Source: Candidatus Heimdallarchaeum endolithica (lineage in GTDB: Archaea; Asgardarchaeota; Heimdallarchaeia; Heimdallarchaeales; Heimdallarchaeaceae). From it: a DNA stretch of 64,000 bases. The stretch is taken from NCBI GenBank assembly GCA_021513715.1, contig CP084167.1:672001-736000 (forward strand), in the 5' to 3' direction. The notes under the pieces are model-generated. The model saw nothing but the letters and a program-made list of their open reading frames with translations, was not told the DNA's origin and made no database searches. Position numbers and translations under genes: made by a program. Shown piece after piece: positions 38,726-38,924 of this stretch; position 1 is the stretch's first letter; every line of letters starts with the position of its first letter.

Positions 38726-38924
38726 ACCTATGTACTATTATACCATAATGGTAGAATACTTAGTACTCGTGGAGTGAAGAGTTCTACTCTTCTTTATGCG
38801 TCCCACGATTCCTAGATGATGTCAGTATGCTCAAACATCTGTTTCAGCGTTTGTATTCTTCCACTGACGTAGTAGGAGAAAATTGTACAAAAAATTAACT
38901 CATGAAGAAGAATACTTGATAAAC
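38726..38924 (+). ncRNA. Putative omega-RNA scaffold plus flanking guide
   Basis: Stems GTACTA/TAGTAC, TCGTGG/CCACGA, GAAGAGT/ACTCTTC, ATGTCAGT/ACTGACGT; covaries with 19774-20029. Confidence 0.65.

Follow-up and report, generated by a model that had tools for sequence, protein, structure and literature searches.

The 179 non-coding bases that follow a tnpB gene in the genome of a Heimdall-group Asgard archaeon very probably constitute the omega RNA (reRNA) scaffold of a TnpB RNA-guided nuclease, which is carried by a non-autonomous transposon with inverted-repeat ends. The tail lies in a window of 64,000 nucleotides (G000:C1:672001-736000; this is the whole stretch of DNA that was analysed, and coordinates refer to it unless given as genome positions) within a single-contig genome of 3.33 Mb and 30.8% G+C, and extends from the stop codon of the tnpB ORF (37211-38725, plus strand) to ...AACTCATG at 38904. 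Our assignment draws on sequence comparison and is based on the position of the tail, its partner protein, the behaviour of its boundary, covariation and a pseudoknot. An initial annotation had already proposed an omega RNA, a reading which is supported by the TnpB fold of the ORF product, the extension of the tail from stop codon to right end, the stop of conservation at that end and the guide-adjacent pseudoknot. The latter and a long-range helix, here termed S6, are absent from that annotation.

The element as a whole (37114-38903, plus strand) is a tnpB-only transposon of 1.79 kb with one gene and CATG at both junctions. Its limits follow from a 99%-identical twin (genome 1464617-1466407, minus strand): identity between the two copies starts at ccccatg (37111-37117) and stops at tcatg (38904), exactly past which they diverge. 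Since identity is confined to these limits, both ends are fixed, with T at 38903 as the final conserved base. The earlier claim that the scaffold runs to the right end was thus confirmed by the twin, and unique flanking sequence lies beyond this end in every copy. A protein search of the whole genome returned one 99% twin (1464799-1466310, minus strand), nine more full-length paralogues with 54-57% identity and several broken copies. Using the tail alignment, nhmmer found 23 tails in the genome; the tail is conserved in about 20 genome copies, which fall into three subfamilies: sf1 (the window copy's own type; two copies with a 179-nt tail), sf2 (about eight copies) and sf3 (about six copies). 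All of these tails end in A(A/C)TCAT and the sequence beyond differs in every copy. The window harbours a second copy, a 5'-truncated sf3 element (19384-20028, plus strand) consisting of the last ~126 tnpB codons followed by the scaffold (19774-20028), which ends ...AAATCATG at 20029. Orphan or decayed tails lacking an adjacent intact tnpB were located at genome positions 2052910, 2097394, 2267897, 1816981, 2350398 and 2711291, and the right ends of some orphan tails outside the window are mutated (ATTATA, TCATT). A metagenome scan returned solely a collapsed copy of the element's repeat.

For comparison, we used relatives from other genera of the family, designated group B (10 tails, 41-45% protein identity) and group C (13 tails, 35-42% protein identity). 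Neither group's tails could be aligned at nucleotide level with those of this genome; all of them end in TAACTCAT followed by a variable base. The tail had been described as lying wholly downstream of tnpB, which holds for sf1 but not for the family at large: in sf2 and sf3 the first helix begins at the stop codon, and in group B the ORF extends 16 codons into the scaffold. Thor-type relatives from another Asgard family (L108-L137, ~30% protein identity) have tails ending in GTTCACTCA(C), after which come a brief hypervariable segment and a conserved AGGTCA/GGTTAT motif that is sometimes repeated. These tails were left out of the comparison as their layout differs; GTTCACTCA plus a hypervariable stretch matches the Asgard-linked TnpB layout in PMC10691335, whereas the family studied here does not.

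The product of the tnpB gene (504 aa) matches Pfam PF07282 (Cas12f1-like_TNB, 3.8e-10) and, weakly, OrfB_IS605. As a PDB sequence search yielded weak or marginal matches only, we turned to a fold search. An AlphaFold2 model (pLDDT 79.5) gave Cas12f, ISDra2 TnpB (8h1j, 8exa), ISFba1 TnpB and mimivirus Fanzor2 (9b0l) as top Foldseek matches (E 1e-13 to 1e-9), so that on the predicted structure the ORF product is a TnpB-fold nuclease. In an alignment of 24 homologues (29-55% identity; those named are assigned to Candidatus Heimdallarchaeum aukensis or Heimdallarchaeaceae), D251, E422, C429, C432, C446, C449 and D456 are invariant. The RuvC residues are D251, E422 and D456, with a D251-L252-G253 (D-L-G) rather than a D-P-G motif at RuvC-I. 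The canonical RuvC-II glutamate position is occupied by G359, which is nearly invariant in the 24 homologues, and the alternative glutamate E422 precedes C429-x-x-C432 by six residues.

Despite the sequence divergence, the tails of all lineages share one order of elements. One or two hairpins (S0) at or after the stop codon are followed by a helix, S1; inside it lie the variable S2 hairpin and the conserved J1 loop (AUGAKU). Directly after S1 comes the 5' strand of S6; then follow one base, AUGA and a branched domain closed by S3. The 3' part comprises (G/U)AG, the 3' strand of S6, an A-rich linker with the inverted-repeat box, AMUCAU and the variable flank. All strings that the initial annotation quoted were found at the places it gave. 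The sequences CTCGTGGAGTGAAGA ... TCTTCTTTATG..TCCCACGATTC ... ATGATGTC that it quoted are present in both window copies (38765-38823 and 19837-19913), and the upstream hairpin it noted in both corresponds in the first copy to S0 (38732-38766, plus strand; outer helix GTACTA/TAGTAC, inner helix TACCA/TGGTA). A hairpin occupies this position in every lineage, its sequence being different each time. In the window copy, S1 is formed by TCGTGG (38767-38772) and CCACGA (38803-38808) on the plus strand; the equivalent helix reads CCGG/CCGG in group B and AGG/CCU or UGG/CCA in group C. S2 is the inner stem, which was correctly reported to differ in length between the copies: GAAGAGT-tct-ACTCTTC (38776-38792) versus a longer purine/pyrimidine hairpin (19848-19881). 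J1 reads ATGCGT (38796-38801, plus strand). S6 pairs TTCCTA (38809-38814) with TAGGAG (38873-38878) on the plus strand and encloses the conserved GATGATG (38815-38821, plus strand) as well as the S3 hairpin domain. The S3 stem (plus strand) equals the previously described closing stem, whose compensatory change we could reproduce: GTCAGT (38821-38826) and ACTGAC (38863-38868) are replaced by TCTGTCT (19911-19917) and AGACAGA (19989-19995) in the second copy. An inner hairpin lies at 38829-38848; in sf1, the branched domain has shrunk to one hairpin (38821-38868). The second copy, also on the plus strand, carries S1 at 19839-19844/19892-19897, J1 at 19885-19890, S6 at 19898-19903/19997-20002 and a three-way domain at 19911-19995.

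Two group C tails, L078 (3006-3049) and L091 (200-243), have no S2 at all, and J1 forms the apical loop of S1. These natural minimal scaffolds suggest that S2 is dispensable. In four group C tails (L072, L088, L078 and L091), the 5' strand of S6 (CGAGA/CGGGA) could also pair with an adjacent UCUCG as a local hairpin, which could be an alternative fold or due to chance.

An unbiased scan of group C for co-pairing columns revealed pairing between J1 (ATGAGT) and the terminal six bases (ACTCAT). The interaction is a pseudoknot, because J1 lies inside S1 and its partner outside, and it sits directly 5' of the variable flank. The pairing is AUGAGU/ACUCAU in groups B and C, AUGAUU/AAUCAU in sf2, sf3 and the sister genome G006, AUAAGU/ACUUAU in L068 and AUGAGU/ACUCGU with one G:U pair in L077; these four fully pairing variants include two double changes and one G:U. 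In the window, the 3' strands are ACTCAT (38898-38903, plus strand), the final conserved bases of the element, and 20023-20028 (plus strand) in the second copy. The sf1 pair AUGCGU/ACUCAU matches at 5/6 positions and contains one C.U mismatch. Guide-adjacent pseudoknots are a conserved feature of TnpB and Cas12 RNAs; the one seen in the ISDra2 structure comprises 3 Watson-Crick and 2 non-canonical pairs (PMC10097598), and that of ISXfa1 is needed for activity (PMC10711439).

The mismatch raises the question whether the sf1 tail is an omega RNA by descent that has lost its function, which we regard as very unlikely. Such decay would fit the C.U mismatch, the reduction of the branched domain to a single hairpin and the low number of two copies. 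But the two copies are 99% identical, carry intact 504-codon ORFs and occupy different loci, which points to recent transposition of sf1, and even at 5/6 pairs the pseudoknot is still as long as that of ISDra2 (PMC10097598).

Folding and covariation were assessed per group. The minimum free energy z-scores are -2.4 for the first and -3.8 for the second window copy. Between these two copies, paired changes occur at two positions of S2, at one position of S3 and in S6 (UUCCUA/UAGGAG versus UUCGUG/UGCGAA). For 14 sf2 and sf3 tails of this genome, 88.7% of the cells of 40 pairs are paired, compared to 50-57% in slid controls. Among the same tails, 3 pairs changed on both sides, which is not above the 2.6 expected in shuffles, and each of the three is probably one event at the split of sf2 and sf3. 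S1 is interrupted by U.C and S6 is weakened in 7/8 of the sf2 copies in the alignment. The relatives gave much clearer signals. In group B, 94.8% of the cells of 76 pairs including the pseudoknot are paired (slid controls, 38-44%), and in group C 96.8% of those of 43 pairs (29-47%); as the structures were built from the same sequences that were tested, they have an advantage over the slid controls. Pairs changed on both sides number 17 in group B (5.6 ± 1.7 in shuffles, 0/500 as high) and 12 in group C (5.6 ± 1.5, 0/500); copies are related by descent, and the shuffle counts are not to be read as probabilities. Covariation among the genomic copies, which had been suggested before, is thus thin within this genome (3 pairs) and becomes strong only with relatives from other genomes. 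With fixed anchors between lineages, S6 has 15 distinct haplotypes with a mean of 4.73/5 pairs, compared to 3.32 after shuffling (0/10000 shuffles as high).

A gathering-threshold Rfam scan of the window gave no match. A covariance model of the group B 5' domain found one mini-element but not the two tails of the window at E < 10, and the equivalence between lineages hence rests on the motif-anchored comparison. An RNAalifold consensus from a mixed MAFFT alignment of sf1, sf2 and sf3 was implausible, because sf1 misaligns in the 3' half, and was dropped for per-group structures. No model across groups was built since MAFFT was inconsistent for groups B and C in S1/S2.

The same comparison speaks to the possibility that the tail is merely transposon-end DNA, i.e. 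binding sites or single-strand hairpins for a transposase without any RNA function. Many of the pairs are G:U on the coding strand and would be A.C on the opposite strand, which argues for an RNA of coding-strand polarity; the helices stay paired through G:U intermediates on this strand only. Part of the tail is certainly a DNA-level signal, since its last ~25 bp form an arm of the terminal inverted repeat shared with the left end. However, the mirrored part is limited to these ~25 bp, and about 150 nt have no counterpart at the left end. In addition, the tail is invariably located 3' of tnpB and on its strand, and its architecture, S6 and the pseudoknot are kept although the sequence has almost fully diverged between genera. 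Altogether, a role as DNA end alone appears highly improbable.

The ends of the element are inverted repeats of 22-30 bp. The left one (37114-37137, plus strand) reads CATG-N8-TTTTGTATAA and mirrors the reverse complement of 38880-38904. In all subfamilies, left ends consist of CATG, 8 bases, a T-run and a near-palindromic 8-mer box, of which the right ends are the reverse complement; the box is TTACGTAA in sf3, TTGTA(T/C)AA in sf1 and TTGCG(T/A)A in sf2. The same layout is found in group B, in which the inverted repeats are ~30 bp long and the box differs. For group C, a search of the 1.5 kb upstream yielded no left ends, and this group was left out of the left-flank statistics. Within the tail, the right inverted repeat is the linker (38879-38897, plus strand; box TTGTACAA at 38883-38890), a region which supplies the 3' arm of a terminal hairpin in groups B and C. 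The terminal repeat region of this TnpB element doubles as the RNA strand of the pseudoknot. While CATG is constant at the left end, the base after the right-end CAT is G in 14/16 and A in 2/16 of the tabulated G000 copies, G or A in G006 and any base in the relatives. The CAT found at both junctions is compatible with insertion 3' of CAT and no duplication, with a duplication of 3 bp, or with one of 2 bp (AT) and G...C termini.

None of the copies of the family contains a transposase, be it a DDE enzyme or another type, nor a Cas1 gene, and the Cas1 genes of the genome are not near any copy. Pairing of inverted end motifs, aimed at an autonomous partner, was too noisy at the high A+T content of this genome to single one out. 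The genome has a single match to Y1 TnpA (PF01797; genome 925129-925479, minus strand), which lies beside a distant tnpB (~923987-924235); a mini-element scaffold is located close by at ~925658. This TnpA was ruled out as partner of the element, being in no family copy and at an unrelated position. Inverted-repeat ends together with the lack of Y1 TnpA in the element likewise ruled out an ordinary IS200/IS605 element.

Comparison with the sister genome G006 allowed us to analyse the insertion site. The sequences flanking the element on the left (36300-37113) and right (38905-39700) are 4 nt apart in G006 with 86-88% identity, where the empty site reads ...ttaccc CACG aagaagaatacttgataaac... 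and an ORF is continuous across it. As the flanks nearly adjoin and the ORF runs through, the comparison indicates that G000 carries an insertion in a gene which is intact in the sister species. The interrupted gene (36955-37113 plus 38904-39965) corresponds to a continuous one at G006:C1:620005-621618, and its downstream part has a TPR domain. The idea that removal of the element would fuse a short upstream ORF in frame was rejected: the frame crossing the site is the one intact in G006. That allele reads CACG instead of CATG and is thus without a CAT motif.

For the guide, the initial annotation had assigned 38905-38924 and had named the empty allele as its target. This allele indeed exists in G006, with 20/20 bases identical, but the guide more likely starts at 38904 (G), because in the relatives conservation ends with the T of CAT and the base after it is variable. 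We infer a flank-derived guide of about 16-20 nt (38904-38923, plus strand), which is unique in the genome and matches the G006 empty site. The 20-nt flank of every copy is unique in the genome, so that no other target within it exists, as expected if the empty allele is the target. CAT is preceded by C, A or G but in no case by T at 27 independent left junctions (G000, G006 and group B), compared to ~28% T at the seven positions further out, whereas the base before CAT at the right end is always T. Our guess from this pattern is a V-C-A-T TAM, with which the element's own right junction (T-C-A-T plus guide match) would be spared. The CAT before the left ends may, however, belong to the element itself or to a duplication.

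Gene-less elements were found in the genome as well. One of ~380 bp (27140-27522, minus strand) has ends of the form CATG-N8-TTTTTACGTAA, and its 3' half forms a compact scaffold of group B/C type, with a GGG/CCC S1 lacking S2, AUGAGU as J1, AUGAA, a CCCC/GGGG domain and a terminal AACUCAU that pairs with J1. Such mini-elements occur in 18 copies with a different right flank in each. A second small element without ORF (27973-28328, plus strand) starts with CATG-N8-TTTTGTACA and has ...TTGTACAAAAATTAAGTTGATG at its other end. As there is no pairing between the terminal hexamer and its AUGAGU-like loop, it is possibly a decayed relative.

Could the tail instead regulate tnpB expression as a structured 3' UTR or small RNA, via stability, termination or antisense control, without being a guide RNA? 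In sf1 it lies entirely in the 3' UTR and, according to PMC10278001, TnpB RNAs are cut from the mRNA, which lowers TnpB expression. Yet 18 gene-less mini-elements retain a related scaffold with no tnpB to regulate, and a pseudoknot that involves the final bases ahead of a hypervariable flank is the specific signature of TnpB and Cas12 guide RNAs (PMC10097598, PMC10711439). Thus, we assign very little probability to a purely regulatory function and favour the omega RNA.

As such, it might act as follows. Transcription through tnpB would proceed over the right end into host DNA, and the 3' UTR would fold into S0, S1 with S2 and J1, S6 with AUGA and the S3 domain, and the linker. ACUCAU, the last six bases of the scaffold, would pair back to J1, placing the pseudoknot directly 5' of a ~16-20-nt guide from 38904. 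TnpB (D251/E422/D456) would bind this RNA and, once the element is lost, cut the restored empty site at ...CCCAT plus guide match, whereupon recombination from a filled copy would restore the element. The 5' and 3' processing of the RNA and the guide length in this scheme are our extrapolations.

The type of system is known and no new principle emerges here; new is the pseudoknot between J1 and the terminal hexamer with paired changes across lineages. Our analysis provides a base-by-base model of the guide-RNA scaffold of a divergent Asgard TnpB, including helices, pseudoknot and scaffold-guide boundary, and as a natural empty target site is known, the system could be tested at once by heterologous expression. 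It also links constraints at DNA and RNA level, with the terminal repeat serving as pseudoknot strand, a link otherwise described mainly for Fanzors.

Compared with known systems, the scaffold resembles the TnpB omega RNA of ISDra2 and IS200/IS605 elements (8H1J, 8EXA; PMC10097598) in its location at the 3' end of tnpB, its termination at the transposon right end, a guide that would be taken from flanking DNA and the pairing of the bases 5' of the guide with a 5'-proximal loop. Its size is similar too (137 nt from S1 to the end versus 116 nt in ISDra2), and clear scaffold-guide boundaries in downstream regions have been found for many TnpB branches (PMC10691335). Unlike in ISDra2, the sf1 scaffold does not overlap the ORF, and unlike in ISDra2 and IS200/IS605 elements in general, the ends are inverted repeats starting with CATG rather than asymmetric hairpins, Y1 TnpA is absent from the element and its vicinity, and the catalytic glutamate is relocated. 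The exchange of the RuvC-II glutamate for glycine with a compensating glutamate is known from RuvC-II-rearranged TnpB clades (PMC10691335). Symmetric ends are shared with DDE-associated TnpBs (PMC10691335), from which the family differs in having neither DDE nor Cas1 gene inside any copy.

Several traits are common to Fanzor2* and Fanzor1. An alternative glutamate six residues ahead of the zinc finger is found there and in some TnpBs (PMC10711439; RIIr clades in PMC10691335), and a non-autonomous, TIR-bounded element is reminiscent of Fanzor2*/Fanzor1 reRNAs in cut-and-paste transposons with TIRs and TSDs and of the IS607 element ISXfa1 (PMC10711439). With regard to the Fanzor TSD, the CAT at either junction would agree with a short duplication as well as with none. 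A pseudoknot is present in TnpB and Fanzor2 (PMC10711439), and the terminal repeat together with short target-derived bases is part of the RNA scaffold in Fanzor2*/Fanzor1 as well as in DDE-linked TnpB cases (PMC10711439, PMC10691335). Differences from the Fanzors of eukaryotes and giant viruses and from the pro-Fanzors of cyanobacterial IS607 elements are the archaeal host, with an archaeal SSU rRNA in the genome, and D-L-G instead of D-P-G at RuvC-I. Tentatively, and as a possibility we hold to be rather less than even, the family might represent an archaeal counterpart of the Fanzor arrangement: an alternative-glutamate TnpB on a cut-and-paste-like inverted-repeat transposon, with a guide RNA whose pseudoknot incorporates terminal repeat and target bases, a V-C-A-T TAM that spares its own T-C-A-T right junction, and service in trans to a swarm of mini-elements carrying only the guide RNA. 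Were this the case, TnpB would have moved onto TIR transposons, a step considered typical of eukaryotic Fanzors, in the archaeal lineage closest to eukaryotes as well.
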